64,000 bases of DNA. Origin: Methanomassiliicoccaceae archaeon (GTDB lineage Archaea; Thermoplasmatota; Thermoplasmata; Methanomassiliicoccales; Methanomassiliicoccaceae). The DNA is taken from contig CAVSJV010000003.1 of NCBI GenBank assembly GCA_963728405.1, positions 224,001 through 288,000 of the forward strand. Reading direction: 5' to 3'. Shown one piece after another: positions 24,413-52,850 of the stretch. Position numbers and translations under genes: made by a program. The notes below the pieces were generated by a model. That model had not been told where the DNA came from. It ran no database searches and worked only from the letters and a program-made list of their open reading frames with translations. Numbering within the stretch: position 1 is the first letter of the stretch; each line of letters opens with the position of its first letter.

Positions 24413-24428
24413 AAGATAAGGGAAAGGG

Positions 24429-24860
24429 TCAGGCGAACTCTGGACCCGAGGGGGCCCGGGGCGCCGGTCCGGCCTTCTTCTCTATGTTGATGCGCGGGAG
24501 CGGGAAGGGCGGCGGCAACCGGATATCGCGAGCGATGAGCAGTGCGGTGGGGATGCAGTTAGAGACGACGATGTTGTGGACAACGTTCGCGGTCTCGTTG
24601 GGCATGGAGCCGGTGGCGGTCCACTCCTTCATCAGCTCGTCCACGTCCCCCTCCAGCAGCACGCTGCCTTCGATCTTAATGAAGCCCATGCCAACGTAAT
24701 TGATGGTGAAACGGAACTCCACCGTGGCCGTGCGGTCGGAAGCGCGGTTTATCTGGGTGACAGTGCTGTTATGATCGATACGTACGTTAGCCACGTGCTC
24801 TCCCGGACGGGAGAACCGCTTGGCCTCGATGGTGTTGGTCTCAAAGCCCATGAGTTGCAT
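24429..24860 (-). CDS. Conserved archaeal hypothetical protein (possibly SecB-like fold)
   Basis: VEFRFTINY..IKIEG..ARDIRLPPPFPLPRI pattern. Confidence 0.65.
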   Translation of the reverse strand: MQLMGFETNTIEAKRFSRPGEHVANVRIDHNSTVTQINRASDRTATVEFRFTINYVGMGFIKIEGSVLLEGDVDELMKEWTATGSMPNETANVVHNIVVSNCIPTALLIARDIRLPPPFPLPRINIEKKAGPAPRAPSGPEFA

Positions 24861-24936
24861 CTTAGCGCCTTTCGAGCAATGACCTGTCCGGCTATTAGAG
24901 ATTTGCCTGACCATCGGGTATGAAAAAGAGATGGAG

Positions 24937-25009
24937 TGCCGCAGGCCGGACTTGAACCAGCGACTTCAAGATCTTCAGTCTTGCACTCTCCCAGCTGAGT
25001 TACTGCGGC
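24937..25009 (-). tRNA. tRNA-Phe (GAA)
   Basis: GCCGCAG acceptor stem, CAAGA-CTGAAGA-TCTTG anticodon arm, GCTGG-TTCAAGT-CCGGC T arm. Confidence 0.95.
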
Positions 25010-25214
25010 GTCGAGAGTCTGTAAAGGCCCCGCCTATAATAAATTTACCTAACCAACGTGAATAGTTAGAAGGGTCCGGATATCCGATTATTTTTATTAT
25101 TATGGTTTCTTACGAGCCAGTTAGAAGGTTTTAAGACCTCACCGACCTTTTCCCATCGTCGGATTGGGGAGTATAGATAAAATGTCGGTACCAGTGCGCA
25201 CTAGAGCCCTGAAA

Positions 25215-26114
25215 ATGTCGAGCAGGCTGTCTTTTCTGAGGAAGGACCAGCAGGGCGTCGCCTCGACCATAGGCACCATCATGGCGCTACTGGTTTTTTT
25301 GGCATTCATGGCCATGATCACCAACAGCTACGTTCCCGCCTGGATGCTGGACAATGAGCGTTCGCACATGAACCAAGCCATTGACCAGTTCGGCGATCTC
25401 AAGGGCAAGGTGGACGGCATGATCAACCAGCAGCGGGTCACCGGGGACAACTCCATGAAGATGTATGCTCCCATGACCATGGGCGCACAGGGCGTCCCGT
25501 TGTTCGCCGCTCCCACCGTTGGCTTACTTAGTTACATGCCCCAAGGCTCCAATGCTACCGGCATCCATGTCTGGTTCAGCTACACCACCTCCACCTCCAC
25601 CATCCCGGTCGATGTGACCGGCGGCGGCAAGGTCGAGCTGTACGTTCCTAACCGTTACTACGTGCAGCAATGGATCGGCTATGAGAACGGAGCCATCATT
25701 GTCAAGCAGGAGGACGGCCAGGCCATTCGCGCCTTCCCTAACCTGGACATATCAAAGATCGGGAACAGCATCAACGTAGCGTTCACCGAGGTGGATCTCA
25801 TCGGAACGAACCAGTCCCTGACCGGTTCGGACTCGGTCGGCTTCAGCCTAGACCTCGTATACATCGATGCCCAGACGTACACTGTGGGCGGGGACTTCAA
25901 GTGGCACCTGACCACCACAACGACCTATGGAGAGGCCTGGTGGAAATATTTCAATGAGACCATGGCCGAGGCCAACCTGATCCCCTCGACCGATTACACG
26001 CTCCTGATGACCGCCCTGCCCAACGGCGCCTCGATCATCGACCTGACCTTGAACAACTGCGGCCAAATGAACTACAACCGCGCGTATGTCAGCATGACCT
26101 TGCTGACCTCCTGA
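25215..26114 (+). CDS. Archaeal type IV pilin-like protein (class III signal peptide)
   Basis: LRKDQQG|VASTIGTIMALLVFLAF; YENGAII motif; first gene of the pilus locus. Confidence 0.75.
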   Translation: MSSRLSFLRKDQQGVASTIGTIMALLVFLAFMAMITNSYVPAWMLDNERSHMNQAIDQFGDLKGKVDGMINQQRVTGDNSMKMYAPMTMGAQGVPLFAAPTVGLLSYMPQGSNATGIHVWFSYTTSTSTIPVDVTGGGKVELYVPNRYYVQQWIGYENGAIIVKQEDGQAIRAFPNLDISKIGNSINVAFTEVDLIGTNQSLTGSDSVGFSLDLVYIDAQTYTVGGDFKWHLTTTTTYGEAWWKYFNETMAEANLIPSTDYTLLMTALPNGASIIDLTLNNCGQMNYNRAYVSMTLLTS

Positions 26115-26123
26115 GGTGCTAAA

Positions 26124-27872
26124 ATGCAAGAGGCTGAACCACGAGTGAAGGGAAGCGCCAAGACCGCCCAGACCGCTCCGGCCTCATCGAAGGAGAGCAC
26201 CCGGGACAAAGTGAGGGATGGTTATCTCAAGTTCCTCCGCCGAGTGGTCCCCAACCGAGCTACCAGGGTTCGATTGTCCACCATCGAGGTAGAGCAACGC
26301 ATCGAATGGTCCAAAGGCCGAGGGTCGGTGGTCACTGAGATCCCCAAGATCGAGAACCCGTCGATCGAGACGATAGAGGTCTATCCGGTCCTGGAACCGT
26401 TCGCCTATACACGTATCACATACAACAACGAAACAAGCGAGTACTTCCTGGAAGCGCTGGAGCCAAAGCTTTCCCCGGACGATGAGAAGCTCCTGCTCCT
26501 GATCAAGGATACCTTGGGCCGGACACTGGGCTACGAGTGGGACAAGTTCACCACCCTGGACAAGAAGGAGTACCTGGTGGAGAGCGTCGAATCGTACATC
26601 CACAGCCGGGGTGTAAAGGTCAACCCACTGCTCAGGAAAAAGCTCAACTACTACATTCTGCGCGATTTCGTCGGGTACGGCAAGGTTGACATCCTAATGC
26701 GGGATGAGAACGTCGAGGATATCTCCTGCGATGGGGTCGGCATCCCGCTCTTCGTCTTCCACCGCAAGTACGGCAACCTCAAGAGCGCTCTGGTCTTCGA
26801 CGACGAGGACGCCCTGAACTCATAAGTGGTCTCGCTCGGCCAGAGAGGGGGCAAGCAAATCTCGGTCTCCAACCCCATCCTAGATGGTACGACCCCCGAG
26901 GGGCACCGTGTCAATGCGACGTACTCCCGGGAGGTAAGCACGAAAGGCTCGACCTTCACCATTCGACGGTTCAAGGACAAGCCCTGGACCCCCGTCGACC
27001 TGGTGAAGACCAAGACGGCCAGCCCAGAGATGGTGGCGTACTTCTGGCTGGGAGTGGAGAACGGCGAGTCCATGATCATCTGCGGCGGCACCGCTTCCGG
27101 AAAAACGTCCACGCTCAATTCCATCGCCCTGTTCATCCCTCCCGGGGCGAAGATCGTCACCATGGAGGATACCAGGGAGATCAATCTCCCCCACATGAAC
27201 TGGATCCCTGGCACCACTCGGTCGGGAGTAGGCGAAAGGGGACCGGACGGCAAGACGCCCGGTGAGATCGATATGTACGACCTCATGCGCGCCTCCCTCC
27301 GTCAGCGGCCGAACTACATCATCGTCGGTGAGGTCAGGGGCAAGGAGACCTACACCATGTTCCAGGCCATGGCCACGGGCCATACGACCTATTCGACCAT
27401 GCATGCCGATTCGGTGCAGTCGATGGTCAACAGGCTGGAGAACCAGCCCATCAACTGCCCCCGTATCCTGCTGACCGCCCTGCGCAATGTCATCATCCAA
27501 TCCCAGGTAAGGGTAGGACAGGACCTGGCCCGACGGATGAAACAGGTCATCGAGATCGTCGGTTTCGAGCCGGACACCAACGAACTGATCTCCAACACCG
27601 TCTATGAATGGGACCAGGCCACCGACCGCTTCGTGTACAAGGGCCACAGCTTCCTGTTTGACAAGATCATGGAGATGAAGAACCTCACCCACGATGAGAT
27701 GATGAGCGAGTTCACCCGGCGAGTGGACCTCATCAAGTACATGGTGTACCGGGATATCACCGACCACCGCAAGATCTGGGAGCTAATCAATCAATATTAC
27801 AAGGACCAGGAGAAGACCATCAAGAGGGTCCGCCGGGAGCTGCAGGAAGGGGGGATAGCTGTTGTCGCCTGA
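26124..27872 (+). CDS. Type IV pilus/T2SS assembly ATPase 1 (FlaI/TadA family); in-frame TAA at 26823-26825
   Basis: ORFs 26124..26825 and 26826..27872 are in one frame; EDISCDG, GGTASGKTS, LRQRPNYIIVGEVRG, STMHA. Confidence 0.88.
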
Positions 27873-28902
27873 GATCTCCGACTCATTCACCAAGTTCGAT
27901 TCTAAGAAAAAGAGCTATATGAAGACCAAGCGGACCTCGGAGCATACCACGAAGTGGGGCCCCCACCTGGTCAAGCTGCCCGAAGGCGTCCTCCCCGACT
28001 ACATCGAGCTCACGTCATACGAGATGTTCTGCTGGCGGACCATGGGCAAGGCCGTCAAGTTGCGGGCCAAGCCCAACCCCAAGCTGGAACAGCAACTGCT
28101 CCAGGCCCATCTCAGGATGAGGCCGGAAGAATACCTGGCCTACGTCTGGATGAGCACATTGCTGGTCTTCGTGGGATTCCTCGCTACGGCCTCGCTGTTC
28201 GGCGGTGTGCTCTTGGCCTTCCTGCACGTCTCAGCAGCCCTGGTGCTGGTGTTCTTCATCATTCTGGTGATGCTTCCTCCGATGATGACCTTCATGGTGC
28301 TTTTATCGCTCCCAGGCTCCAAGGCCAAGACCCGAGCACGGGACATCAACAAGCGCATCGGACCGGCCATGAGCTTCATCTCCGCCATGGCGTCCGCGGA
28401 CGTCAACATCGATGTCATATTCAAGGAGCTGGCCAAGCAGGACATTTATGGCCAGATCAAGAACGAGGCCGAATGGATCACCAGGGACACCGAGCTCCTG
28501 GGGATCGATATCCTCACCGCTATAAACCTAGCCGCTCAGCGCACTCCATCCATCAAGTTCCAGGAGTTCCTGCAGGGGGTGGTGACCTCGTCCACCTCCG
28601 GAGGACAGCTAAAGCCGTACTTCCTGCAGAAGGCCGAGCAGTTCGAAAAGGAGGGCAAACTGGAGATGCGGTCCCAGCTGGAGACCCTCGGCCTGATGGC
28701 CGAATCGTTCGTAACCGTAGTGGTGGCATTCCCGCTTTTCTTGGTGGTCATCATGGCAATCATGGCCATTGTGCCGGGCGGGGGCGGCGGCTCGTCGACC
28801 ACGGTGCTGCTGCTTGAATTGGTCATAGGACTGATGATCCCGTTCTCCCAGTTCGGGTTCATATTCTTCATTTGGAACATGACCCATGAGTCGTCGCTGT
28901 GA
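27862..28902 (+). CDS. Type II secretion F-domain (TadC/FlaJ-like) membrane platform protein
   Basis: TM pairs; GIDILTAI..TPSIKFQEFLQG..SGG. Confidence 0.85.
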   Translation: MSPEISDSFTKFDSKKKSYMKTKRTSEHTTKWGPHLVKLPEGVLPDYIELTSYEMFCWRTMGKAVKLRAKPNPKLEQQLLQAHLRMRPEEYLAYVWMSTLLVFVGFLATASLFGGVLLAFLHVSAALVLVFFIILVMLPPMMTFMVLLSLPGSKAKTRARDINKRIGPAMSFISAMASADVNIDVIFKELAKQDIYGQIKNEAEWITRDTELLGIDILTAINLAAQRTPSIKFQEFLQGVVTSSTSGGQLKPYFLQKAEQFEKEGKLEMRSQLETLGLMAESFVTVVVAFPLFLVVIMAIMAIVPGGGGGSSTTVLLLELVIGLMIPFSQFGFIFFIWNMTHESSL

Positions 28903-28911
28903 GGTGAGGAA

Positions 28912-29814
28912 ATGGCCGAAGACATAATGGACCTGGAGCAACTGGACCTGAAGAAGCGGGACTATGGCCAGACCATCCTCATCGTTGGGGTGGCGGTTGG
29001 AGCCCTATTGTTCGCCATAGGGTTCTTGGACGGGATAGGGGGCCTAGGAATGCCCTTTGAATGGATCGACTACCTGATACTCGGCCTAATGGCCATCACC
29101 GGGCCGTACGGCTTTTATCAATCCAACCGAAGGAAGAAGATCCGGGAGATCGAGGTCCGGCTGCCGGAATTCCTGAGGGATGTGGCCGAAGCCGGCCGTT
29201 TCGGCATGACCCTTGCCTCGGCCATCAAGGTCGCCTCCCGCGGCAAGTACGGGCGCCTCACCCCGGAGATACGCAGGATGGCCGCCCAGATCGACTGGGG
29301 CGTGCCTGCGTCGGAGGCCATGAGACTGTTCGCCGAAAGGGTGGACACTCCCCTAGTCAAGCGGATGACGTCCATCATTATCAAGGCCAATGACGCCGGC
29401 GGCTCGGTCGCCGATGTGCTGACCATGGTCGCTCACGACGCCCGGGAGACCATGCTCAACCAGACCGAGCGCAAGATCTCCATGTCGACCTACATGATGG
29501 TCATCTACATCGCCTTCGCAGTGTTCATCGCCACCATCTTCATTCTCAACACCACCTTCCTCCCGAAGATGATGGAGGCGGGTCAATCGGTGGCCGCGGG
29601 CGCCGAGAAGGCGGGCATAGATGTTAACAGCCTATCCACCATCCAGACGAGCGTAATACCAACGATTCAGCTGCTGTTCATCATCTCAGTCATGATCCAC
29701 GCGCTGGGCGACGGCATCCTGGCCGGAGTACTGGCGGACGGCCAGATATCTACAGGCATGAAGCATAGCTTCATCATGCTCCTGATCGGGCTGGTGGGCA
29801 CGAGGTTGATCTGA
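28912..29814 (+). CDS. Second type II secretion F-domain (TadB/C-like) membrane protein
   Basis: LPEFLRDVAEAGRFGMTL..YGRLTPEI..WG..GGSVADVL. Confidence 0.85.
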   Translation: MAEDIMDLEQLDLKKRDYGQTILIVGVAVGALLFAIGFLDGIGGLGMPFEWIDYLILGLMAITGPYGFYQSNRRKKIREIEVRLPEFLRDVAEAGRFGMTLASAIKVASRGKYGRLTPEIRRMAAQIDWGVPASEAMRLFAERVDTPLVKRMTSIIIKANDAGGSVADVLTMVAHDARETMLNQTERKISMSTYMMVIYIAFAVFIATIFILNTTFLPKMMEAGQSVAAGAEKAGIDVNSLSTIQTSVIPTIQLLFIISVMIHALGDGILAGVLADGQISTGMKHSFIMLLIGLVGTRLI

Positions 29815-29815
29815 C

Positions 29816-31498
29816 ATGGACGAGGCAGTGAGGCAGGATGAGATAGAGCCCCTGTTCGAGGAGGAGCCCCGGGCCCGGAAGGAGAAGCTGACCCTGACGT
29901 CCAGATATCTCTCGTTCCTGGTGAAGGTCCGCAACAAGCCCATGCGGGTCCGATTACCCAGCGGGACCGCCGTGGAATCGACAATCATCACTGAAATTCC
30001 CCGAATCTCGGACCCCACCATCGAAGAGGTCGAGATCACCCCCATCGAGGAGCCGTACTCCTTCGTGCGCATCAACTACGATAGCACCGCCGGGGAGTAC
30101 CTTTACGAGGTCATCGAGCCCCGGCTGACCGAGGACGAGCAGAACATCCTTGACGTGCTGAAGGGCGCGCTCATTGTCTCCCTGAACCTGTCCGATACCC
30201 ATGATATGGAGGAGAAGCGGGCCGTGCTGAGCAAGGCCACCGACCGCCTGCTGACCAAGCTTGGGGTCACCTTGCACCCCGTGTCCCGCGAAAGGGTGAT
30301 CTACTATCTGCGCAGGGACTTCACTGGCTATGGGGTCATCAACATCATGATGGTCGACCCCAGCATCGAGGACTGCTCCTGCGACGGCGTGGACATCCCA
30401 TTGTACATCTACCACCGCAAGTACGGCAGCATCAAGAGCAACATCCGGTTCGATAGGGAGGACGAGCTGGACGCCTACGTCGTCTGGCTGGCCCAGAAGT
30501 GCGGAAAGCATATCTCGGTGGCGAACCCGCTGCTGGATGCCACCATCCCCGACGGCTCCAGGCTTAACGCCACGCTGGGGAAGTATGTCACCAAGAGGGG
30601 TTCGACCTTCACTATCCGGCGTTTCAAGGACAACCCATTCACACCGGTGGACCTGCTGAAGTTCAAGACCATGTCCACCGAGATGATGTCGTACCTATGG
30701 ATATCGGTAGAGTTCGGCTCATCCATGCTGGTCTGCGGTGGCACCGCCTCTGGTAAGACCACCACGCTCAACGCCATCCTGCTATTCATCCCGCCCCAGA
30801 TGAAGATCGTTAGCATCGAGGACACCAGGGAGCTGAACCTTCCGCACGAGAACTGGATCCCCGGCCTTACCAGAGAAGGGTTCGGGGGCAAGACCGGGAC
30901 CAATAACGGTACTATCAACATGTTCGACCTGCTCACAGCCGCGCTGAGGCAAAGACCCCAGTACCTGATGGTAGGTGAGGTCAGGGGCAAGGAAGCATAC
31001 GTCGTGTTCCAAGCTATGGCCACCGGGCACATATCGTACTCGACATTCCACGCTGAGGACGTCCAGGCCATGGTCCATCGTCTGGAGAACGAGCCCATCG
31101 ATCTGCCCCGAGCGTTGCTCACCGCCCTTAACCTGGTAATGCTCCAAGGGCAGGTGAAGGTAGGCACCAAGATGACCAGGCGGGTCAAAGGTCTGACCGA
31201 GATCGTGGGCATGGACCCCGAGACCGGGGAGCTCATAACCAACTCGGTGTTTTCCTGGAACCCCGCCGACGACAGCTTCACCTACTCCGGCCACTCCTAC
31301 ATCTATGAGAAGGTCCGCGCGGTGCGTAACTGGTCCCCCCGGGAGATGGAGCGGGAGGTCAAGAGACGCATCGACATCCTGGAGTACATGAAGAAGATCG
31401 GTGTCAACAACTATCGCCAGGTGGCCAAGATCGTCTCCGCCTACTACAAGGACCCCGAGAGGGTCCTGAAAGAGGTCAGGGAAAAGACGGCCGAGTGA
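29816..31498 (+). CDS. Type IV pilus/T2SS assembly ATPase 2
   Basis: GGTASGKTT, SIEDTREL, LRQRPQYLMVGEVRG, STFHA. Confidence 0.9.
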   Translation: MDEAVRQDEIEPLFEEEPRARKEKLTLTSRYLSFLVKVRNKPMRVRLPSGTAVESTIITEIPRISDPTIEEVEITPIEEPYSFVRINYDSTAGEYLYEVIEPRLTEDEQNILDVLKGALIVSLNLSDTHDMEEKRAVLSKATDRLLTKLGVTLHPVSRERVIYYLRRDFTGYGVINIMMVDPSIEDCSCDGVDIPLYIYHRKYGSIKSNIRFDREDELDAYVVWLAQKCGKHISVANPLLDATIPDGSRLNATLGKYVTKRGSTFTIRRFKDNPFTPVDLLKFKTMSTEMMSYLWISVEFGSSMLVCGGTASGKTTTLNAILLFIPPQMKIVSIEDTRELNLPHENWIPGLTREGFGGKTGTNNGTINMFDLLTAALRQRPQYLMVGEVRGKEAYVVFQAMATGHISYSTFHAEDVQAMVHRLENEPIDLPRALLTALNLVMLQGQVKVGTKMTRRVKGLTEIVGMDPETGELITNSVFSWNPADDSFTYSGHSYIYEKVRAVRNWSPREMEREVKRRIDILEYMKKIGVNNYRQVAKIVSAYYKDPERVLKEVREKTAE

Positions 31499-39690: not shown

Positions 39691-40392
39691 CTAGCCCAAG
39701 GTCGGTCCGAGGATGGTTAGGCCTTTCTCCCCTACCTCCACGGTGTGTTTCTCCATGCTGTGCTTGCAGGCCCTCATCTTCTCTACCCGGATGAAACGGG
39801 CCAGCTTCCCCCTCGCCCGGTCCAGTCCGAGCTCGATGATGCCGTCCACGAGGAAACCTTCGTTCCCCAGCAGATCGGACGGCCCGCCCCGGGAGCGCTC
39901 CATGACGATGAAGCAGACCAGGTTCTGGTCGCGGAGGGTCTTGAAGAAGTAGAACATGTTCTTGCGCATGTTCTCGCTGCTGTCCATGAGCGAGTACAAC
40001 GCTCCGAGCGAGTCCAGGGTGAACACGGTGAACCGCTCGCCGTGCTTCTTCTTGTGGTACTCGATGGTCTGCTCGATGAACTGGATGTAGTCGGTCGGCT
40101 TCTCCTCGTCGATGACCTCGTCCAGCTCTCGAAGGTCGGTGATGTCCGATATCTCCAAGTTGGGGCTTGGCTCGATCCCCAGGCCGCGCATGTTGTTGAT
40201 ATGGCTCGCCGCGGTCTCCTCCAACGTGACGTAGAGGCCAACCTCATCGGCCTTCTCCAGATAGTTGGACATGACTGAGTAACAGAAGCTCGTCTTCATC
40301 GAGCCGGGAGGCCCAGTGACTAGTATGACCTTGGGTGCTTCGATGTCGGAACGGAATATCCTTTCGAGCCCCGGGATTGAGTCCCTTAGCGT
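39691..40392 (-). CDS. KaiC/RAD55-like ATPase (single domain); apparent ACG start
   Basis: LRDSIPGLE..ILVTGPPGSMKTSF, LYVTLEE, FTLDSL, VDGIIEL..VEKMRA. Confidence 0.85.
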   Translation of the reverse strand, partial: TLRDSIPGLERIFRSDIEAPKVILVTGPPGSMKTSFCYSVMSNYLEKADEVGLYVTLEETAASHINNMRGLGIEPSPNLEISDITDLRELDEVIDEEKPTDYIQFIEQTIEYHKKKHGERFTVFTLDSLGALYSLMDSSENMRKNMFYFFKTLRDQNLVCFIVMERSRGGPSDLLGNEGFLVDGIIELGLDRARGKLARFIRVEKMRACKHSMEKHTVEVGEKGLTILGPTLG

Positions 40393-40425
40393 TGTTTTAC
40401 CCCCGGCTTTAATCCCCTGGGCAAT

Positions 40426-40560
40426 TAAAAAGGTATCTGCGGTGAACTACTCCATCTGATAAAATGGGGTTTCTTGCTTCAACCACTCGACTTGCATCAT
40501 TCTCAATGATGTAGCGGTCCAATGTCCACAAGCGAGTTCGGGCAGTTCCTGCCCTACCTT
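40426..40560 (-). ncRNA. Predicted omega/reRNA scaffold overlapping the tnpB 3' end plus flank-derived guide
   Basis: Hairpins GGGCAG-GAA-CTGCCC, CATCATT-GAG-AATGATG and CCATTT-TATC-AGATGG before TAGTTCAC; position expected for IS605 reRNA. Confidence 0.6.
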
Positions 40561-41680
40561 CTCAATACCTCGGTGGAGGATATTGATGGAAGCGTTATGG
40601 TCACGCGATAGCGATAGACCACAGAATGGACAGTCGTGTCGTCTATCGCCTAGTGTTTTAGGAACTAGCTTGCCGCAGCCGGAGCACATCTGACTCGTGT
40701 TTCTTGGATCGACCTGAACGAACAGCTTACCAGCGTTTTCAGCTTTGTAAGCTAGTTCCTGGTTCAGCGAACTCCAAGACGCGTCGGATATGCTTCTTGC
40801 TAGTCTGTGATTCTTGACCATGTTATTTGGTTGTAACTTTTCGGTCACGATGAGGTCGTAATTGTTGACATACGATCTCGATACTTTATGCTGAAAATCG
40901 TTTCTTTGATTGCACACATGCTCGTACTGGCGAGCAACCTTGATGCGTTGTTTCTCTCGATTGGTCGATCCCTTCTGCTTCTTACTTAGGCGTCGTTGCT
41001 CCCGTCTTAGTTTCTTTAGCGCTTGCTTGAGATGTCTTGGATTCTCAACTTCGTTGCCGTCGCTGTCGACGATGTACAACTCAAGTCCAACATCGAGACC
41101 TACGGCATTCTCAACATCTAATGACTCGTATTCTTTCGAGCCATTGTCGACAATGATGTAAGCGTACCACTTACCGGACGGCATATGCTTGATCGTCACC
41201 TGCTTGATCTCGCCTTCGATTGGACGATGCATTCGTATCGGTATGTCGCCGATCTTCGAGAGATGCAACAAACCGAACTTGTCGTTCCTCGGCAAAATTT
41301 TGAAACCAGACTGATTGTAGGTGACTGTCTTGAACCGGTGTTCGCTCTTGAAGCGAGGTTTTCCGACCTTCCTTCCTCGCTTCTTCATCTCCTTCAATGC
41401 AGCGAGATTGGTGAATAGGCGGTCCACCTCTGGCTGAAGACATTTAGAATAGATGTCTTTTAGCTCAGGCCATACCTTCTTCAAATGGGTCAGGAACTTC
41501 GATAGCTCATTATAGCCTATCGTTCCTGCGTTGTATTCCTCCAACAAACGGTTGTAGGCCCGTCGGCACACTTCCTTTGCCCGTAACAGCTTCCGCTCTT
41601 CCTCTTTGTTGGGGTAGAGACGGCACTTGTTGACAAGCGCATCAGAGCACCGAATTTCTTGACGACCTTCATATATAAAC
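40442..41680 (-). mobile_element. IS200/IS605-family (IS1341-like) element carrying only tnpB; left end not defined
   Basis: tnpB with lower GC than flanks; right end hairpin then GAGTAGTTCAC; no tnpA. Confidence 0.8.
40447..41642 (-). CDS. tnpB: RNA-guided endonuclease TnpB; 1-nt frameshift just after ATG 41642
   Basis: RLYPN HTH start, GLDVG (RuvC I), IVTEKL (RuvC II), CSGC..CPFC, RDHNASINI (RuvC III). Confidence 0.93.
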
Positions 41681-41794
41681 GTCGAACGGAGAGGTCAGTG
41701 AAAGTGCCCGTTTTCGCTTATCCTTGAGATGCCAGGGGGCATGTTCGCACGAAGATAAAAAAGATTATGACCCGCCCGGGGGCGGTAAGGGGTT

Positions 41795-44700
41795 TTACTC
41801 CTCGGTATCGTCGGTTTCCTTGACGGCCGGCAGGATGGTGTCGGCCTCTATGGACTCGGTTTGCGCCACCAAGAGCTTCTCCTGCGCCCCTACGAGCCGA
41901 GCGACCGCGGTGATCTTGTCCTCCTCGGAGAGCTTCATGATGGTCACGCCCATGGTCGAGCGGCCCATCGTCCTGATCTCCTCCGCGGGTACGCGGATGA
42001 CCATGCCTTGCAACGAGGTCAGGATCAGTTCGTCGTCGTCGGAGACCGTGCGCACCGAGACCACGCGGCCGTTGCGGTCGTTGGTCTTGATGGTGATCAC
42101 ACCTCTCCCGCCGCGATGGGTCTTGCGGTAGTTCTCGACCAGAGAGACCTTTCCGAAGCCATGCTCGGTGATGGTCAGCAGCTTGTCCTCTGGTCGCACG
42201 GCGGCCATACTGACCACCTCGTCGCCTTCGTCCATGCGCATGCCGATGACCCCGTGGGCGGGCCGGCCGGTGGACCGGATCTCGGTCTCCTCGAAACGGG
42301 AGGCCTGCCCATCCTTGGTGGCCAGTATTATCTCCATCGTCCCGTCCGTCAGCTTGGTATCCACGAGCTCGTCGCCTTCGTTCAGGCCGACCGCGATGAT
42401 GCCCGAGGAGCGGGACGTTCTTGTACTCGTCGAGCACGGTCTTCTTGACGTTCCCGGCCTTGGTGGCGAAGACAAGGTAATGCTGGTCATCGAACTTGTT
42501 GATGGCCAGATTGTCCTCGATCCTCTCTCCGTCCTCCAGCTTGGGCAGGAGGTTGATGATCGGCTTGCCCTTGGAGTGGCGGCCGCCCACCGGGATGCGG
42601 TAGGCCTTTAGCCAGTAGACCCGACCCTTGTTCGTGAAGAACATGATGTAGTTGTGGGTCATGGTCACGAAGAGGTCGACCACGTGGTCCTCCTCCTTGG
42701 TCTCCATGCCGATGAGGCCGACACCGCCGCGGTGTTGCTGCTTATAGGTGTCCAGCGGCACACGCTTGATGTAGCCATCGCTGGAGATCATGATGACCAT
42801 CTCCTCGTTGGGGATGAGGTCCTCGATGTCCAGCTCCCCCGTGTCGATGACGATCTCGGTCTTACGGTCATCGCCGTAGGCCTGCCGGATCTCGGCCAGC
42901 TCGGCCTTTATTATGGCGAGGATCTTCATCTCGTCGGCCAGGATCTCCTCCAGTTCGCGGATGCGCTTCTCGATGGCCGCGAACTCGGCCCGCAGGTCCT
43001 CGATCTCCAAGCCGGTGAGGGCGCGGAGCCGCAGGTCCAGGATGGCCTTGGCCTGTATGTCATCGAGCTCGAACCGCTGCATCAGGCCGTCCTTGGCCTG
43101 CTCGGTGGTCTGGGCCTCGCGGATGATGCGGATCGTCTCGTCGATTGCGTCGACCGCCTTGATCAGCCCCTGCAATATGTGGTCCCGGGCCAGGGCCTGG
43201 CGCAGCTCGTACTCGGTGCGCTTGGTCACCACCAGCTTGCGGTAGTCGACGAAGGCCATGAGCATCTCGCGGAGGGTGAGCACCTTGGGCTCGTTGTTCA
43301 CCAGGGCGAGGTTGATGATCCCGAAGGTCACTTCCATCTGCGTGTGGGTGAACAGCTGGTTGAGCACGATCTCTTCCATGGCGTCCTTCCGCAGTTCGAT
43401 GACGACCCGCATGCCGTCCCGGTCGCTCTCGTCCCGGAGGTCGGTGATCCCTTCGATCCGCTTGTCCTTGACCAGCTCGGCGATGTTCTCGATCATCGTC
43501 GACTTGTTGACCTGATAGGGGATCTCCTCGACGATGATGCGCTTGCGACCGTCCTTCTCCTCCATGCTGGTCCGGGCCCGTACCTTGAGGCGACCCCTAC
43601 CGGTGGAGTAGGCCTCGATAATGCCGTTGGTGCCGTAGATGATGCCCCCCGTGGGGAAGTCCGGCCCCCTGATGAACGCCATCAGGTCGAGGTTGTCCGC
43701 GGACGGCTCGTCGATCAGATGGACGATGGCGTCGCAGACCTCCCTCAGATTGTGGGGAGGGATGTTCGTCGCCATGCCCACAGCGATGCCAGAGGAACCG
43801 TTGACCATCAGGTTCGGTATCTTGGCCGGCAGGACCACCGGCTCCTTCAGCGAAGCGTCGAAGTTGTCGGTCCACTCGACCGTTTCCTTGTCGATGTCCT
43901 GCAGCATGTCCTCGGCCACCAGATCCAGCCGGCATTCGGTGTAACGCATCGCGGCCGCTTCATCGCCGTCAACGCTCCCGAAGTTACCATGGCCGTCGAC
44001 GAGCGTGTATCTCAAAGAGAAGTCCTGGGCCATGCGGACCAGGGAGTCATAGACGGCCGTGTCGCCGTGTGGATGATATTTACCAAGGCAATTTGAAACC
44101 ACTATGCCGTTCGCTACAAATTCGTGGGCAACTGCAACCTGGATATCATATGTATGTTCTGCGGGGGCTGCGTCAATTTTCTTGATTCCTTGGAAATAAA
44201 TGTGGTTATCCAAGATTTCCTGGAACAGGGGGGCAACCTTTGAACCGATTCTCTCAAGCTTAGAATGGATTCCCCATTCGATGATTTGAGTCCGACCCAG
44301 CGGACGTGTCCGAAGATCCGAGGAGTAACGAATATTTCCGCCATTCGGATAAGCGATCCCGCTACGGAATTTGTTACCTTCGTAATCCTCATACCACCCG
44401 CTTCCTAGGTGATGTTCTGATAGTTCATCGAATACTACGCTCCCGGCATAGGGGATACGGTCAAACGACGAGACCTTACAATCCGCTGCAAGGACTGTGT
44501 TCTAATCGTTCCTTCCTCAATTCATTGTGTAACTCGAGTTTTAATGCAAGGGCTTTAGCATGCCGTCCATTGACTTCGATGGAGATTAGGGGATAATTCC
44601 GTTGCAGAAGCCATCCGTTTACCATCTGGATGTTATCTGTGCTATCCTGTATGTGGCGATGGCTCGGTATGCCCAGTTGCTGCATGATTAGTTGGACATC

Positions 44701-45741
44701 ATCGGCCAACCTCTCGGATACAGTCCCATAGTGGATGGTAGAACGATCCTTATGGACAGATCCGTCACCATCAATTAAACCAGATAGGAGAGCTGCCAAA
44801 GCAGTTTTTGGCGATTGAAATAATGCTTCTGGTACTCGAACGCTCTTCGTCTTATTAGACGTGGCACCTTTAATAATATTCGCAATATATTTATTAAGGT
44901 CATGGTCTGTAATTCTTATCTGATTCATGACCTTGCCATCGGGCAAAGACTCCTGCGGATTTGCCCCATAACTTCTAATTACTGCCTCATAACCGAATGT
45001 TGCTTTTAGCAGGTCCCGTACATGGTTTATTACTCCCACAGAGGACGAATAGAAGCAGAAATAGCCCACATTCGTATTTCCGTTGGACGGTTCGAGGTGT
45101 CCATCCGACACGAACTGTCCAATCAAATAGGCAATGTTCTCATCGAGCTTAAGCTTCCGGCCATTCCAATCAGGCAAATCAACATAGGGCAGGTTATCTG
45201 GATAGTCGAACCTCATGACCAAATTGTCATTTTCAGTTAGCTCCTCTGCTTTCTTCCATTTATACTGAAGGCCATTGGTTATAACCTTAAATGGCTGCGA
45301 TGGCGTCGCTGTTATCGATAGGCCACTTTCGAGAGTGATGCGCAGTAGCTCCCTCTTTGGCATCTCATATAGCTCGGTGACGGTCGAGAGGCCCCTCTGA
45401 GTGTAGACCTGCTCGCCCTTACCGATCTCCTCGATGGGGATAAGACCGCGGTCCGTGAGCACACGGGTGCCGGCGACGAAACATTCTCCGACCACCCTGG
45501 CGCTCTTCTTATGGGGCTTGTTGTGGGTGTTCCCCATATCGTACATCGCGTACATGATACGCCGATGCACTGGCTTGAGCCCATCCCTTACATCGGGGAG
45601 CGCCCTACCGACGATGACGCTCATGGCGTAGTCGATGTAGGATTTCTTCATCTCCTGCTCGATGGGCCGGTGGATCTCTTTCAAAGGGGCAAGCACTACG
45701 GCCTGCGGTTCCGTGTTCTGTGATTCGTTATCGTCTGTCAT
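41795..45741 (-). CDS. gyrA: DNA gyrase subunit A with intein; frameshifts at ~44497 and ~42415
   Basis: [30 protein letters not shown], GyrA-box QHRGGVG, beta-pinwheel repeats. Confidence 0.95.
44091..45483 (-). mobile_element. Intein with LAGLIDADG homing endonuclease in gyrA
   Basis: ARVVGE|CFVAGT...[18 protein letters not shown]|CLGKYHPHG; LIGQFVSDG and LSGLIDGDG motifs. Confidence 0.92.
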
Positions 45742-45751
45742 GTCATTTCAC

Positions 45752-48130
<2,379 letters not shown>

Positions 48131-48398: not shown

Positions 48399-49666
48399 AT
48401 GGCCGGCGCGAGCGTTTCTCACAGTGACCTGATCAAGGAAGTGGCCCGAAAAGAAGGAGTGGAAGAGAGCGTTCTGGCACACCGGTTCCGGGAGGGCCGA
48501 GTGGTCATACCCAGCAATCCCATCCATACCCCCCGCCCCTGCGGGATCGGCGAAGGCCTTGGGGTCAAGGTCAACGTCAAATGTGGGGACCTCCCGCGAC
48601 CGAGTGGTCCTGGAGGAGGAGCTGGAAAAGGTAAGGGTCTCTCTAGAGTACGGGGCCGACGCCATCATGGACCTGAGCACTGGCGGGGACATTGACGCCA
48701 TCCGGCAGAGGATCATCGCCGAGAGCCCCGTTCCCATCGGAACGGTACCCATCTACCAGACCGGGCTGAAGATGGCCAGGAAGGGTGCCCTGGTGGACAT
48801 GGACGAGGACGACATCTTCAATGGCATCGTCCAGCATGCCAAGGACGGCGTGGACTTCATGACCGTCCATTGCGGGATCACCAAGGAGGCGGTCGAGCGC
48901 CTCAAGCGCACCCCCCGGGTCACCGATGTGGTATCGAGGGGGGGCTCCTTTCTGGTCGCCTGGATCCTGCACAACGGCAAGGAGAACCCCCTCTACGAGA
49001 ACTTCGACTACCTACTGGAGCTGGCCAAGGAGCACGAGTTCGTGCTGTCCCTGGGGGACGGTTTCCGACCGGGATGCATCAATGACGCTACGGACGGGCC
49101 ACAGGTCCAAGAACTGTTGAACCTCGGGGAGCTGGTCCGCCGGTGCCGCCAGGCCGGGGTCCAGGCCATGGTCGAGGGACCGGGGCACGTGCCCATCGAC
49201 CAGATCGAGGCTAACGTTAGGCTGGAGAAGAGCGTATGCCACGGCGCCCCGTTCTACGTCCTCGGCCCGCTGGTCACGGACATCGCGCCGGGCTACGACC
49301 ACATAACCGCCGCTATCGGCGGGGCGATGGCGGCCTATTATGGCGCCGATTTCCTATGCTACGTAACCCCGGCCGAACATCTGTCGCTGCCCACTCCCCA
49401 GGACGTCAAGGACGGCCTTATCGCCAGCAAGATCGCGGCCCACGCCGCGGACGTGGCGCGGGGGCGGGGGAAGGAGCGGGACCTGCGCATGGCCGAGGCC
49501 CGCAAGGCCCTGGACTGGGAAGGCATGTATCGCGAGGCCATCGACGAGAAGAAGGCGAGGGAGTACCGGGCCCGGGGGACCACCGCCGAGAAGGAAGGGT
49601 GCTCGATGTGCGGGGGCAGTCTGCGCCATCAAGATAGTCAAGGAATACCTGAAGCGCGAGCAATGA
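48399..49666 (+). CDS. thiC: ThiC-family radical SAM enzyme (HMP-P synthase, or Bza paralogue); frameshifts at ~48580 and ~49615
   Basis: GADAIMDLSTGG, IGTVPIYQ, SLGDGFRPG, MVEGPGHVP, YVTPAEHL, CSMCG..CA. Confidence 0.85.
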
Positions 49667-49673
49667 GAGAAGA

Positions 49674-49776
49674 TGGAGCCACTGAGGGGTTTCGAACCCC
49701 CGACCTACAGTTTACGAAACTGTCGCTCTTTCGCGGTCCCAGAGCTGGCCCGGGACTGCCGCTGAGCTACAGTGGC
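49674..49776 (-). tRNA. tRNA-Thr (CGT) with encoded CCA and a 26-nt D-loop intron (49731..49756)
   Basis: GCCACTG/CAGTGGC acceptor, ACAGT-TTCGTAA-ACTGT anticodon arm, GGGGG-TTCGAAA-CCCCT T arm; BHB motif in the D loop. Confidence 0.9.
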
Positions 49777-49895
49777 GGATGCTTTTCCATCAAGCCATCC
49801 TTCGATTTATAGATTGTGTCACCGCCTCATTACGCTGGAAGCATGCCGCGGGCAGAAACACTATATGTCCACTCGGCGTTCCTTGAGCGTTATCC

Positions 49896-51749
49896 GTGCT
49901 GCTTGAGCTAGGGGTCCCGCAGGGACAGGTCGTTTCCCGATGGAAGGGGGGCGAGGGGATCGTCAGGGAGGCTTTGGAGAGGGTCAAGGCGGCCTCCTTC
50001 ACCGGATACCTGAAGATCAGCCTGTCCAAAGGGGGGGAGCGGTCCGAGGGGCTTATCTCCTTCACCGGGGGCTGTCCCGTCTTGTGCCTATACGTCTTCC
50101 AACCGGCGGGCATGGAGGAGATCTGGTTCCTCGGGGAGAAGGCCGTGGAGTACCTCTGGTATGACGCGGCGATGGCCGAGGTGGTCATCTCCCTGCATGG
50201 GGACATCAGCCTACGGGACTTCGAGCAGCTGTTCCCTGGTGCGAGGATCAAGAGGATCGAGCCACCCCGCTCGCATCTGACGCCCGATAAGGCGAGGGAA
50301 GAAAAACTGCATAGCGCCGAGCCAGAGAACACCGGAGTGCATATGCTGGGCGCGCTGGGGCCGTCGATGACCGGAGAGGTGGACCGCCGGAAGGTCGATC
50401 AGCAGGCCCGGGGCGTCTATGACCTTATCCTGCAGTACCACAAGATGCAGTCAAGCGCCCAAGGGATCAACGCCTGCAGGGACTGCGGCGAGCCGATCGA
50501 TCTGCTGGGCTATTGCCCCCTATGCGCTTCCAAGGATGACCGCGGGCCGATCGTGCCGCGCATGGACCCTCGGTTCACCTTCGATTCCTTCGTGGTCGGG
50601 ACCAGCTCTCGATTCGCCGAGGCGGCGGCCCGGGCAGTGGCCACCGACCCCGGATACCTCTACAATCCGTTGCTCATCCACGGCCGGTCGGGGCTTGGCA
50701 AGACCCACCTCCTACAGGCCATCGGCCATCAATTAAAGAAGGACCACATCGACCTCAATGTGGTATGCGTCCCTCTGGAGTCGCTCGAGGAGCACGTACT
50801 GGAGTCGCTCGGGAACAAGCAGGGGGAGCTGCGCCAGGAGATGGAAGGAGCGGACATTTTGCTCATCGACGATATCCAGTTCCTTTCGGGAAAGGAGCGC
50901 TTGCAGGATGAGCTACTGAGGGTCATCAACTGCCTGATACCTAGCGGCAAGCAGGTGTTGCTCACCGCCGATCGGGCGCCCAAGGACATTGCGTCGCTGA
51001 CGGATCGCCTGGCCTCGCGGATCGAGTCGGGACTGGTAGTGGATATGGGACAGCCGGACTTCGTGGCCCGCCTGGACATCCTGCGGAAGGTCGTCGCCGA
51101 TGAGGGATTGAACATCCCGGAAGAGGTCATGGAGTTCGTGGCCGAGATGTGCCCCGACAACGTCCGCCAACTGGAGGGCGGCATGAACAGGGTGATCGCG
51201 TTCGCCTCGCTGATGCGCTCGGACGTCACCCTGGACGTCGCCCGTGAGGTCCTGGGACACGAGAAATCGCCGGGAAGGACGATAAGGAAAGAGCTGGTCG
51301 ACCACCGCTCCTACATAGTTGAAGAGTCCCGCCCCGATCATTGTTACGATATCCTAATCTCCAAGTTGGACGACGGCTACCGCGGCATGGTCTTCAGCCG
51401 CAGCAACCCCGCCTCGATCAGGGAGCGACTGGAAGGAAGGGCGGCAGAGATATTCTGGCTGACCGAGCGCGAGACCCGGGGCGAGCGGACCGTGCCCCCC
51501 TCGTTGGAGAAGATCGTGTTGCTAGCGGAGGACCACATCCATCTGGATGGCCCATCCATAGTCCTACTGGACGACCTTCACTACCTGATCAGCAATGCCA
51601 CCTTCGACGGCGTCATCCGCTTCGTGCGATCGCTGGTCGACCATGTCTCCGAGCACAAGGCATTGTTCGTGGTCTCGGTGAGCCCGGACAGCCTGAAGGT
51701 GCAGGAACGGTCCATTTTAGAAAGGGAGTTGGAACCGATAAAGCCGTGA
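49896..51749 (+). CDS. Multidomain protein: DUF2226-like, zinc ribbon, DnaA-type AAA+ (domain III), DUF835
   Basis: FTGYLKI..EGLISF; CRDC..CPLC; FTFDSFVVG, YNPLLIHGRSGLGKTHLLQAIG, LLIDDIQFL, RLASR, NVRQLEG; SRSNP..FWLT..LLDDLHYLI..LEREL. Confidence 0.85.
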   Translation: MLLELGVPQGQVVSRWKGGEGIVREALERVKAASFTGYLKISLSKGGERSEGLISFTGGCPVLCLYVFQPAGMEEIWFLGEKAVEYLWYDAAMAEVVISLHGDISLRDFEQLFPGARIKRIEPPRSHLTPDKAREEKLHSAEPENTGVHMLGALGPSMTGEVDRRKVDQQARGVYDLILQYHKMQSSAQGINACRDCGEPIDLLGYCPLCASKDDRGPIVPRMDPRFTFDSFVVGTSSRFAEAAARAVATDPGYLYNPLLIHGRSGLGKTHLLQAIGHQLKKDHIDLNVVCVPLESLEEHVLESLGNKQGELRQEMEGADILLIDDIQFLSGKERLQDELLRVINCLIPSGKQVLLTADRAPKDIASLTDRLASRIESGLVVDMGQPDFVARLDILRKVVADEGLNIPEEVMEFVAEMCPDNVRQLEGGMNRVIAFASLMRSDVTLDVAREVLGHEKSPGRTIRKELVDHRSYIVEESRPDHCYDILISKLDDGYRGMVFSRSNPASIRERLEGRAAEIFWLTERETRGERTVPPSLEKIVLLAEDHIHLDGPSIVLLDDLHYLISNATFDGVIRFVRSLVDHVSEHKALFVVSVSPDSLKVQERSILERELEPIKP

Positions 51750-52850
51750 TCAGAGGTTCCGCTCCTCGGCATGGAACTCGGTGAGCCGCTCCAGCGCCTC
51801 CTCGTACCTCTCCCTCTTCATGGACACCCCGGCATCCTTGAGGATCTTGACCATGGCCGTGACATCCTTGCCGTTGGACTTGGCATCCAAGAGGCTCTGC
51901 TTCGCTTTCCGCAGCTCGACCATGAGCATCTCCGGCAGCGCCTTGTTCAGCTCCTCGCGGCCCTTGCGGGACAGGATCCCCATGGTTGTCCAGTCCCCAC
52001 TTTCGCCGGCGTCACGCGCTTCGTTCAGTAGCTTGCGAGACTCCCTGACGTCTAGATAGAAGCGTTCGGAGTTCAGGATGAGCTTTTCCAGTGCCTCGTA
52101 CAGATCGTGCGTTTCCACGTACTTGCCGGTGAGCTGTTCGGCCAGCCTCTTTCCGGAACGGGCCTGGTTCAGCGCCCCTTCGTAGTCGCGAACGGCGTAC
52201 CTTTCCTTGGTGTCATCGATCACCTTCTCGATGACCTGGTGATCGGAGTTCATCTTACGCGCCACCACGGCCAGGTTCTCCAGGTACATGATGTCCCGCT
52301 CCAGCCGGTCGGCCAGAGATCTGATCAGCATCTCGCGGCACTCCCGCATGGTCTTGACCGCGGGGTCGATCTCCCGGCGCTTGCCGAGCCCGACCGCTTT
52401 GTCGATGAGCCTGCGGGTGGTGATGGTATCTATTGAGAAGTCCTTGGCCAGGGCCAGCAACGGGCCGACCTCGCTGACCAGTTCGGAGAACTCTTCCCTC
52501 AGTTCCTTCTGCAGGGCGACCTGTTCCTGCTCCTCGATCTCCTTGGTATCGGGGACCTTCTCCTCGGTCTTTGGTTCCTCTACGGGGGGTGGTCCCATAA
52601 GGGAATGTCCGCACTTGGGACAGGCCTCGCTCTCCCCGGGGACGGTGGCGTGGCACTGGGGGCACTCGATCTCGGCCACTTCTTCGATCACGAACTCCAC
52701 GCCGCACTTAGGGCAGCGGTCCACCTCACCCAAGATGTGCATGCCGCACTCTGGGCAATCGAACTCAAAATCATCCTCGGCTTTGTGGTTTACGGTGGAG
52801 TCAGACAGACCGATCACCTCTGGGTCCCGGTGCAAATCAGGCCACAACAT
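51750..52850 (-). CDS. Double zinc-ribbon protein with helical C-terminal repeats
   Basis: CPECG..CPKCG..CPQCH..CPKCG then helical repeats; start is ATG 52850 or CTG 52808. Confidence 0.75.
   Translation of the reverse strand: MLWPDLHRDPEVIGLSDSTVNHKAEDDFEFDCPECGMHILGEVDRCPKCGVEFVIEEVAEIECPQCHATVPGESEACPKCGHSLMGPPPVEEPKTEEKVPDTKEIEEQEQVALQKELREEFSELVSEVGPLLALAKDFSIDTITTRRLIDKAVGLGKRREIDPAVKTMRECREMLIRSLADRLERDIMYLENLAVVARKMNSDHQVIEKVIDDTKERYAVRDYEGALNQARSGKRLAEQLTGKYVETHDLYEALEKLILNSERFYLDVRESRKLLNEARDAGESGDWTTMGILSRKGREELNKALPEMLMVELRKAKQSLLDAKSNGKDVTAMVKILKDAGVSMKRERYEEALERLTEFHAEERNL

Follow-up and report, generated by a model that had tools for sequence, protein, structure and literature searches.

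The window analysed here, a stretch of 64,000 nucleotides from a Methanomassiliicoccaceae archaeon (assembly GCA_963728405.1, contig CAVSJV010000003.1, positions 224,001 to 288,000), carries a gene for a four-part protein of 617 residues, in which an N-terminal alpha/beta domain and a C4 zinc ribbon are followed by a complete domain III of the replication initiator DnaA and by a C-terminal DUF835 domain (Table 1). In textbooks DnaA marks the bacterial way of initiating replication, and archaea are said to be without it. An original prediction, made from the letters of this stretch alone, had proposed this architecture and quoted the motifs behind it, and all of them are present in the translation (FTFDSFVVG, YNPLLIHGRSGLGKTHLL, LLIDDIQF, GKERLQDE, DRLASR, NVRQLEG and CRDC...CPLC). 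The start codon is correctly called, because the orthologues share the N-terminal sequence MLLELGVPQG. An AlphaFold model built with 27 orthologues shows three separate confident domains (approximately residues 10-120, 223-455 and 470-617) joined by disordered linkers, with an overall predicted local distance difference test (pLDDT) score of 80.6. The contig is archaeal, as had been supposed: close homologues in the databases are named Methanomassiliicoccus sp., Methanomassiliicoccales archaeon or Thermoplasmata archaeon, and the same genome (2.73 Mb in 18 contigs, the window being part of contig C3) has two Orc1/Cdc6 genes, both on contig C17. The gene is the single Bac_DnaA match in this genome.

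The core of the protein is a genuine DnaA-type AAA+ module, comprising domains IIIa and IIIb. Pfam gave Bac_DnaA (PF00308) with 173 bits (expectation value, E, 7e-51) at residues 224-383, and neither Bac_DnaA_C (domain IV) nor DnaA_N (domain I) was matched in the protein at E<=1. The NCBIfam model for DnaA (TIGR00362) aligned only at its positions 102-339 of 437, corresponding to domain III and its lid, and the score of 263.9 bits is below the cut-off of 343.9 for a full-length equivalog. The Hda model (TIGR03420) reached 96.3 bits, under its own cut-off of 194.8 and under the DnaA score. Solved structures gave the same order, the best matches being the DnaA entries 8bv3/8btg (211 bits, residues 223-453), followed by DnaA of T. 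maritima and A. aeolicus, with Hda (36.8 bits) and the helicase-loader entry 2w58 (25 bits) as weaker matches. The module therefore groups with DnaA and not with Hda or DnaC. When superposed on domain III of B. subtilis DnaA (8bv3_A) the model gave a template-modelling (TM) score of 0.92 and a root-mean-square deviation of 2.0 A at 45% identity, with the initiator-type helical insert included, and it also fits the single-stranded DNA (ssDNA)-bound DnaA entries 8btg and 3r8f. Together with the Pfam score this agrees with the near-textbook domain III that had been predicted. Over about 230 residues the query shares 42-47% identity with canonical bacterial DnaA representatives, which makes them as close to it as archaeal relatives from other families. 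The DnaA match stops at residue 453-457, where DUF835 comes next, and residues 1-220, where domain I would be, are occupied by a different domain and the zinc ribbon. The protein is thus without domain I, for helicase and partner binding, and without domain IV, for DnaA-box reading.

Fifty-six archaeal modules were compared with 90 canonical DnaA sequences at positions mapped via E. coli DnaA (L042), whose functional roles we take to be those reported for the E. coli and B. subtilis proteins. The Walker A lysine and the Walker B aspartate pair (K269 and D325/D326 in the target) are present in 56/56 archaeal and 90/90 canonical sequences. The sensor I aspartate (D359) is found in 53/56 against 90/90, and the sensor II arginine (R424) in 52/56 against 90/90. 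Box VII of the target has R371 and R375, the latter being the arginine finger; at the corresponding positions R281 is kept in 51/56 archaeal and 89/90 canonical modules, and the finger R285 in 50/56 (a further four have lysine) and 90/90. The AID-2 leucine is present in 51/56 and 81/90, respectively. The residues of the ATP site and the arginine finger are kept as well as in true DnaA, so that the constraint on nucleotide handling and on the interface between protomers is like that of DnaA. At the level of sequence the module clearly retains the residues expected for ATP binding and hydrolysis and, by way of the arginine finger of box VII, for contact with an adjacent protomer.

The positions tied to origin unwinding, which in the target are L302 (the H-motif), E317, E295 and R335, are to judge from the alignment relaxed in the archaeal modules. 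The H-motif, which contacts ssDNA, is I or V in 90/90 canonical sequences but I, V or L in 35/56 archaeal ones, the other 21 having D, T, S, K or other residues. The AID-1 arginine is kept in 31/56 against 85/90 and E204 in 35/56 (plus 16 with aspartate) against 90/90. Moreover the helix-loop region around the H-motif and AID-1 positions has deletions in some close orthologues. These substitutions bear on a second function that had been proposed for the protein, that of an ssDNA or replication-state sensor forming ATP-dependent filaments on ssDNA, with DUF835 reporting to signalling partners, as might happen when replication is stressed or DNA is damaged. This proposal is weakened by the relaxed H-motif and AID-1, and also by the use of the same module elsewhere in fusions with a PilB-type ATPase or with long regions not related to DNA. 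It keeps in its favour the hydrophobic L302 of the target itself and of the 35 modules above, the fit of the fold with its initiator-type insert to DnaA domain III and to 8btg and 3r8f, the zinc ribbon directly upstream of the AAA+ part, and the genes for gyrase, an AP-endonuclease-fold protein, OGG and an Lhr-AlkZ helicase, which lie nearby in a partly conserved order. We regard it as a somewhat unlikely explanation. An argument from loss of the B-motif arginine (E. coli R245), drawn from 17/45 archaeal modules, was dropped, as canonical DnaA has arginine there in only 30/90.

The N-terminal domain was modelled alone with high confidence by AlphaFold2 (pLDDT 90.1, predicted TM score 0.84). 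A Foldseek search against solved structures gave nothing at E<=0.001, and in a VIA search the best Z was 5.5, with PPC/DUF296-type entries at 4.4-5.4, which is below a meaningful level. The domain had been called DUF2226-like. The target itself stays under the Pfam cut-off (15-17 bits against 22, positions 4-79 of the 252 of PF09987), but the first third of DUF2226 is matched by 6/22 orthologous N-domains, the best with E 2.8e-07, and the Atlas score to DUF2226 is 0.87. The domain is therefore best described as remotely homologous to the first third of DUF2226 and not as a full member. It is the only one of its kind in the genome, where a search for DUF2226 itself gave no match. Identity with DUF4388/PatA_N was considered and rejected, hhalign to the bacterial protein P0080 giving nothing and weak Pfam matches appearing in only 2/22. 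NCBIfam gave nothing useful for the N-terminal part or for the DUF835 part. Ahead of the zinc ribbon lies a conserved helix, GVYDLILQYHKM, in which Y175 and D176 are invariant among the 27 orthologues and L177-L179 nearly so. The ribbon has the pattern C194-x2-C197 ... C207-x2-C210, and all four cysteines are invariant in 27/27 orthologues.

The C-terminal domain matches DUF835 (PF05763) over residues 479-612 with 75.4 bits (cut-off 33.1), covering model positions 4-136 of 136, and its predicted structure has the alternating strands and helices of a Rossmann/RecA-like fold. No Walker A P-loop (GxxxxGK[ST]) is present in residues 464-617 nor in 13 aligned DUF835 domains, and the protein has no Pfam match to KaiC (PF06745) at E<=1. 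The idea that DUF835 is a degenerate KaiC agrees with the label 'iKaiC', a divergent and possibly inactivated ATPase of the KaiC superfamily, which is given to it in the main text of PMC5847659 (Galperin et al. 2018), where REC-DUF835 is also listed among the output architectures of response regulators. The matches obtained here are weak. The best solved structure was FlaH (4yds) in the Walker-B region with E 0.054, below significance; Atlas leads to the KaiC/DUF7504/DUF7090 clusters scored 0.77-0.80, and hhalign against the KaiC of the window gave a probability of about 1%. A tie to the KaiC/RecA-like ATPases may exist at the level of the superfamily. The genome has 12 DUF835 matches, in which the domain is combined with REC, HisKA_7TM (three proteins), V4R or HhH, or stands without a partner. 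One of these paralogues (L015 in Table 1) joins a DUF5915 region and helix-hairpin-helix DNA-binding motifs to DUF835, so the domain is also coupled to a DNA-binding input.

Table 1. Positions of the gene, its parts, its neighbours in the window and the related loci named in the text (coordinates of loci with L numbers are their own).
Feature	Position	Strand	Basis or remarks
Whole gene	49896..51749	+	Uninterrupted open reading frame (ORF), GTG start, stop included, 617 residues; orthologues with the same ends
N-terminal alpha/beta domain, ~residues 8-120, remotely DUF2226-like	49917..50255	+	AlphaFold2; Pfam matches of orthologues
Conserved helix ahead of zinc ribbon	50373..50453	+	Alignment A1; pLDDT 40-47
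C4 zinc ribbon	50469..50531	+	Alignment
DnaA domain III (AAA+ base and lid), residues 221-457	50556..51266	+	Pfam, NCBIfam, PDB matches, model superposition
DUF835, residues 470-617	51303..51746	+	Pfam, secondary structure, alignment A3
Convergent neighbour, ~366 residues, triple zinc ribbon and helical/coiled-coil	51750..52850	-	Pfam DZR/Zn_Ribbon_1
tRNA, 100 nt	49677-49776	-	Rfam 57.1 bits; ARAGORN did not report
thiC ORF	48559-49812		Overlaps the tRNA
gyrB with mini-intein	45752-48112	-	Intein_splicing, residues 441-584
gyrA with intein and LAGLIDADG endonuclease	41718-45741	-	Two ORFs listed, 41718-44213 and 44476-45741
Short KaiC-family gene (202 residues) beside IS605-type TnpB	39691-41571	-	OrfB_IS605 and Cas12f1-like TNB
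611-residue protein with C-terminal KaiC/DUF7504, then tRNA-Phe, then type-IV-pilus-like cluster	22577-31498	+	
Lhr-type helicase fused to AlkZ-like DNA glycosylase region and winged helix-turn-helix, 1,792 residues	56393-61771	-	
Second Lhr, 913 residues	9216-11957		
N-domain-DUF835 proteins of genus g8, 335 residues	L034 (G038) 1656-2663; L035 (G030) 1800-2807		Whole AAA+ part missing
Split form, L023 (G550:C1)	1565-2980; 3065-3994		471 residues ending in DnaA III; 309-residue DUF835 protein 85 nt downstream
DnaA III-T2SSE fusion, L027 (G444:C1)	2856-5297		813 residues
DUF5915-HhH-DUF835 paralogue, L015 (G000:C2)	1483-3318	-	Same genome as the target

The gene was found with its AAA+ part, as one uninterrupted frame, in 23 of 41 related genomes, among them the single-contig genomes G008 and G009. 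All four genomes of genus g8 (genera and families are given here by our own labels) have only the N-domain and DUF835, seven genomes have DUF835 paralogues alone, and seven have no match (g3 0/4, g12 0/2, g15 0/1). With the AAA+ part alone as query (E<=1e-20) the class sample gave matches in 190/401 genomes, 53/104 genera and 84/260 high-quality genomes, always in long ORFs, mostly of 560-820 residues, and the phylum-wide sample in 45/401 genomes and 27/161 genera. In the class sample the AAA+ part was not found in families f7 (0/48), f16 (0/59) and f24 (0/43). Most of the genomes without the gene in g3, g12, g15 and f7 are 97-99% complete. What had been reported as one odd fusion is thus a class-wide gene whose module recurs in several architectures within the phylum, so that the scope, although not the observation, had been underestimated. 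These counts, along with the kept synteny, point to old age and vertical descent of a conserved, chromosomally inherited gene of Thermoplasmata; it is also dispensable in several lineages. As a side observation, some genomes of the phylum, G502 and G559 among those flagged, have up to six DnaA-III matches.

The same distribution bears on the possibility that the gene is a misassembled chimera, a bacterial contaminant of the genome bin or a mobile or defence gene acquired recently by transfer. The assembly is a draft in 18 contigs with an estimated contamination of 4.07%, there is a TnpB/IS605 gene at a distance of about 8 kb, and the AAA+ part has a weak cross-match to mad8 of PADLOC. Nevertheless relatives carry the same uninterrupted ORF, in the 23 genomes and in the 190 of the class sample given above, the flanking genes are archaeal and in conserved order, the GC content (0.60-0.615) is unremarkable and the gene is present in a single copy. 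The fusion is accordingly real and an artefact or recent import is extremely improbable. A part in anti-phage defence was likewise discarded: in PADLOC-DB 2.0 the target matched only mad8, with 23.9 bits at residues 258-347, which are generic P-loop positions, and the neighbouring gene matched nothing.

A survey of 20 further loci from the class and the phylum, of which 18 proteins were scanned, showed the module in various architectures. Bac_DnaA was matched in 16/18 of these archaeal proteins, whereas domain IV was matched in 0/18 at E<=0.001. The order N-domain-AAA-DUF835 is found in L026, L029-L032 and L036, and AAA-DUF835 without the N-domain in L028, L040 and the divergent L033. In L023 the two parts are encoded by separate adjacent genes. 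The AAA+ module and DUF835 are thus coupled, by fusion in many families or by gene adjacency in L023. Short forms in which no C-terminal domain was detected are present in L024 and L038, and a form with a purple-acid-phosphatase-N-like domain in L041. L022, L025 and L037 are ORFs of 1,251-1,423 residues in which the AAA+ lies near the C-terminus and is followed by double zinc ribbons, with about 900 upstream residues without a recognised domain. In L027 DnaA III (234 bits) is joined to a T2SSE ATPase of PilB/ArlI type (124 bits).

Synteny supplies another type of evidence. Among 31 loci examined, thiC lies upstream of the gene in 16, and a convergent gene for a zinc-ribbon/helical protein lies directly downstream in 19, including four other families (L029-L032, L039). 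The g8 genes occupy the same slot (thiC / gene / zinc-ribbon neighbour / AP endonuclease) and are therefore orthologues that have lost the AAA+ module. The g8 form looks like a clean natural deletion of that module. In the convergent neighbour some 250 residues of helical repeats come after three CxxC zinc ribbons; for its family assignment only the Pfam zinc-ribbon models gave matches and NCBIfam gave nothing useful. By genus, the full-length neighbour and the target were both found in 10/15 and neither was found in four (g3, g4, g12, g15), while in genus g5 the neighbour is present in 3/6 genomes without the target. As the genomes are kin, this co-occurrence is suggestive only, and the neighbour is a possible partner. 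A complex prediction for the target (A1) and the neighbour (A4) scored 0.00 in both runs, which were made without controls and speak neither for nor against binding. That the neighbour is a paralogue of the linker of the target was also considered and rejected, there being no likeness beyond CxxC.

In this archaeon, which initiates replication by means of its own Orc1/Cdc6 proteins, the DnaA engine has probably taken on a different role. Because the two Orc1/Cdc6 genes lie on another contig, and because the gene was not found in g3, g12, g15 and f7 and its AAA+ part is missing in g8, we infer that the protein is not an initiator. We propose that it is an ATP-switched, self-associating regulator that signals through DUF835, a reading to which we give a probability of about 0.55. 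ATP binding would make the AAA+ modules associate with one another head to tail, in the manner of DnaA, Hda and DnaC, and the nucleotide state would then be handed on to DUF835. This domain would most likely be a shared output or docking domain of KaiC/ArlH-like kind, because in this genome receiver, 7TM-sensor, V4R and HhH domains all have it as their C-terminal partner. The DUF2226-like N-domain and the zinc ribbon may serve as an input or localisation cue.

Bacterial Hda and DnaC/DnaI are DnaA-family AAA+ proteins which act through protein contacts. By this precedent the protein might be a replication accessory which regulates or loads the Orc1/Cdc6 and MCM machinery. Hda and a helicase loader do appear as weaker matches, and gyrB is only about 1.8 kb away. 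The gene is nevertheless unlinked to both orc1/cdc6 genes, its C-terminal module is the one used by sensory proteins, and whole families whose genomes are complete gave no match to it. The absence from these families and the loss of the AAA+ part in g8 are hard to square with a core replication role, and we consider such a function very unlikely.

Several points weigh against the regulator proposed here. Self-association would be deduced from conserved residues only. The arginine finger or sensor II is substituted in a few orthologues, and hydrolysis may therefore not matter in all of them. As the H-motif is still hydrophobic in the target and in the 35 modules counted above, ssDNA binding is also conceivable, and the DNA-transaction genes of the window (gyrB/gyrA, the AP-endonuclease-fold gene, OGG and Lhr-AlkZ) would fit a DNA-related role as well. 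Moreover the FlaH, Atlas and hhalign results for DUF835 only faintly suggest that it is KaiC-like.

The original prediction had called the AAA+ domain bacterial, and this part of it is not supported. An exhaustive search with the AAA+ part gave 19,946 proteins at E<=0.001. Among the best 150 of these 65 are canonical with domain IV, 11 are of the archaeal type, 41 are tandem proteins with two AAA+ modules and no domain IV, with one further tandem protein that has it, and 32 have a single AAA+ without domain IV, many of them with a partial second AAA+ match. The best-scoring 'bacterial' matches are tandem proteins from Gemmatimonadales. In a FastTree tree of 185 modules, whose bacterial and canonical sample is biased to the best matches of the query, 65/66 canonical modules group in a single clade (support 96) without the query, and the archaeal modules fall outside this clade, in several supported clades. 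An IQ-TREE analysis (LG+C20 PMSF) of 63 rows, 24 of them named bacteria, was made with the quick search; its backbone was unresolved and no donor phylum emerged. Rooting with Hda/DnaC is unreliable because of their long branches. Constraining 26 archaeal modules to one clade (L041 left out) cost 7.3 log-likelihood units, with a p-value of 0.36 in the approximately unbiased test (p-AU), and a single archaeal origin is therefore not rejected, for a group that was named after the first tree had been seen. As the archaeal modules are not nested in a sampled bacterial DnaA lineage, a bacterial donor is unproven.

These trees leave room for a wider view, in which the DnaA engine would be an old free-standing oligomerisation module and not something that bacteria invented and passed once to a single archaeon. 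The bacterial initiator would then be the lineage that gained domains I and IV, while others stayed ATP-switched polymers, in Thermoplasmatota and in the bacterial tandem proteins; the archaeal polymer would dock through its ArlH/KaiC-like DUF835 onto hexameric ATPases of PilB/ArlI or KaiC type. This view is suggested by the DnaA-III-T2SSE fusion of L027 in the same phylum, by the split pair of L023, and by the position of archaeal and tandem modules outside the canonical clade together with the p-AU of 0.36. It is a speculation that we hold to be quite unlikely.

The bacterial tandem family without domain IV (P0081, P0094, P0122-P0175; loci L073, L076, L098) is an observation in its own right, and no description of it was found in the literature searched. 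P0080 ends in DUF4388/PatA_N, and P0122 and P0126 have about 1,900 residues. The Gemmatimonadales members, named 'DnaA/Hda family protein' (P0094, P0081), resemble the archaeal proteins in having domain III without domain IV and in lying near the archaeal modules, outside the canonical clade, in the trees. They differ in having two AAA+ per chain, no DUF835 and bacterial hosts.

Compared with bacterial DnaA domain III (8bv3/8btg, T. maritima 2z4r, A. aeolicus 1l8q/3r8f) the target has the same AAA+ fold and lid, with Walker A/B, sensors I and II, the box VII arginines and AID-2 all in place. It differs by the absence of domains I, II and IV, the fusion to a zinc ribbon, a DUF2226-like domain and DUF835, the archaeal host with Orc1/Cdc6, and the relaxation of H-motif, AID-1 and E204 across the archaeal family. 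Hda and DnaC/DnaI/IstB would be the functional analogy that we favour, being AAA+ proteins without a sequence-specific DNA reader of their own that make ATP-dependent protein contacts, although they are far more distant in sequence, have other partners and lack DUF835 and the zinc ribbon. The KaiC-family and ArlH (FlaH) ATPases share the RecA/KaiC-like strand-helix core with DUF835, and one orthologue has been named FlaH automatically; nevertheless the DUF835 of the target has no Walker A and no Pfam KaiC match, and the similarity is below significance.

In the archaeal REC-DUF835 and REC-PAS-DUF835 sensors covered in the main text of PMC5847659, DUF835 ('iKaiC') has the same C-terminal output position, but in the target it is preceded by an ATPase (DnaA III) and not by a classical sensor or receiver. 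The passages on these sensors do not mention a DnaA fusion. The archaeal proteins called 'DnaA-like' in PMC4158269 are viral or plasmid ATPases (of fuselloviruses, fused to primases, arCOG07960 etc.); by their description the likeness is one of label and AAA+ membership only. They are loosely named and mobile, whereas the target is chromosomal, syntenic and close to true DnaA III. A 2025 review of archaeal initiation (PMC11880632) treats DnaA as bacterial. The searchable full text, in which supplements (e.g. that of PMC5847659) were not covered, gave no description of a DnaA-DUF835 protein or of an archaeal DnaA-III protein, in line with the earlier statement that no characterised protein of such architecture was known. 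The family can be seen in databases, where it has automatic names such as 'DnaA/Hda family protein', 'DUF835 domain-containing protein' and the JGI name 'chromosomal replication initiator protein DnaA', and it is therefore an uncharacterised variant and not an unseen gene. The last of these names misleads archaeal annotation and origin prediction. Within a major archaeal class, a close relative of the DnaA ATPase engine has long been present and is widely inherited. This relative offers a natural experiment on what the engine does alone, which may be to switch with ATP, to self-assemble and possibly to contact ssDNA. It also opens a first way to the function of DUF835, an output domain of archaeal sensors that has had no explanation, and adds evidence on how the parts of the bacterial initiator came together.

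The remaining features of the window are listed in Table 1. The type-IV-pilus-like cluster has two T2SSE ATPases and two T2SSF membrane proteins. A KaiC network had been described as abundant in the window; it amounts to two KaiC-family ORFs, and no link from them to the target was found. The 100-nt tRNA sits between thiC and the target, 120 nt before the start of the latter, and its absence from the ARAGORN output is probably due to an intron. Since the thiC ORF overlaps this tRNA, the real end of thiC is probably earlier. The region of the tRNA and the end of thiC is conserved in relatives, in another frame.

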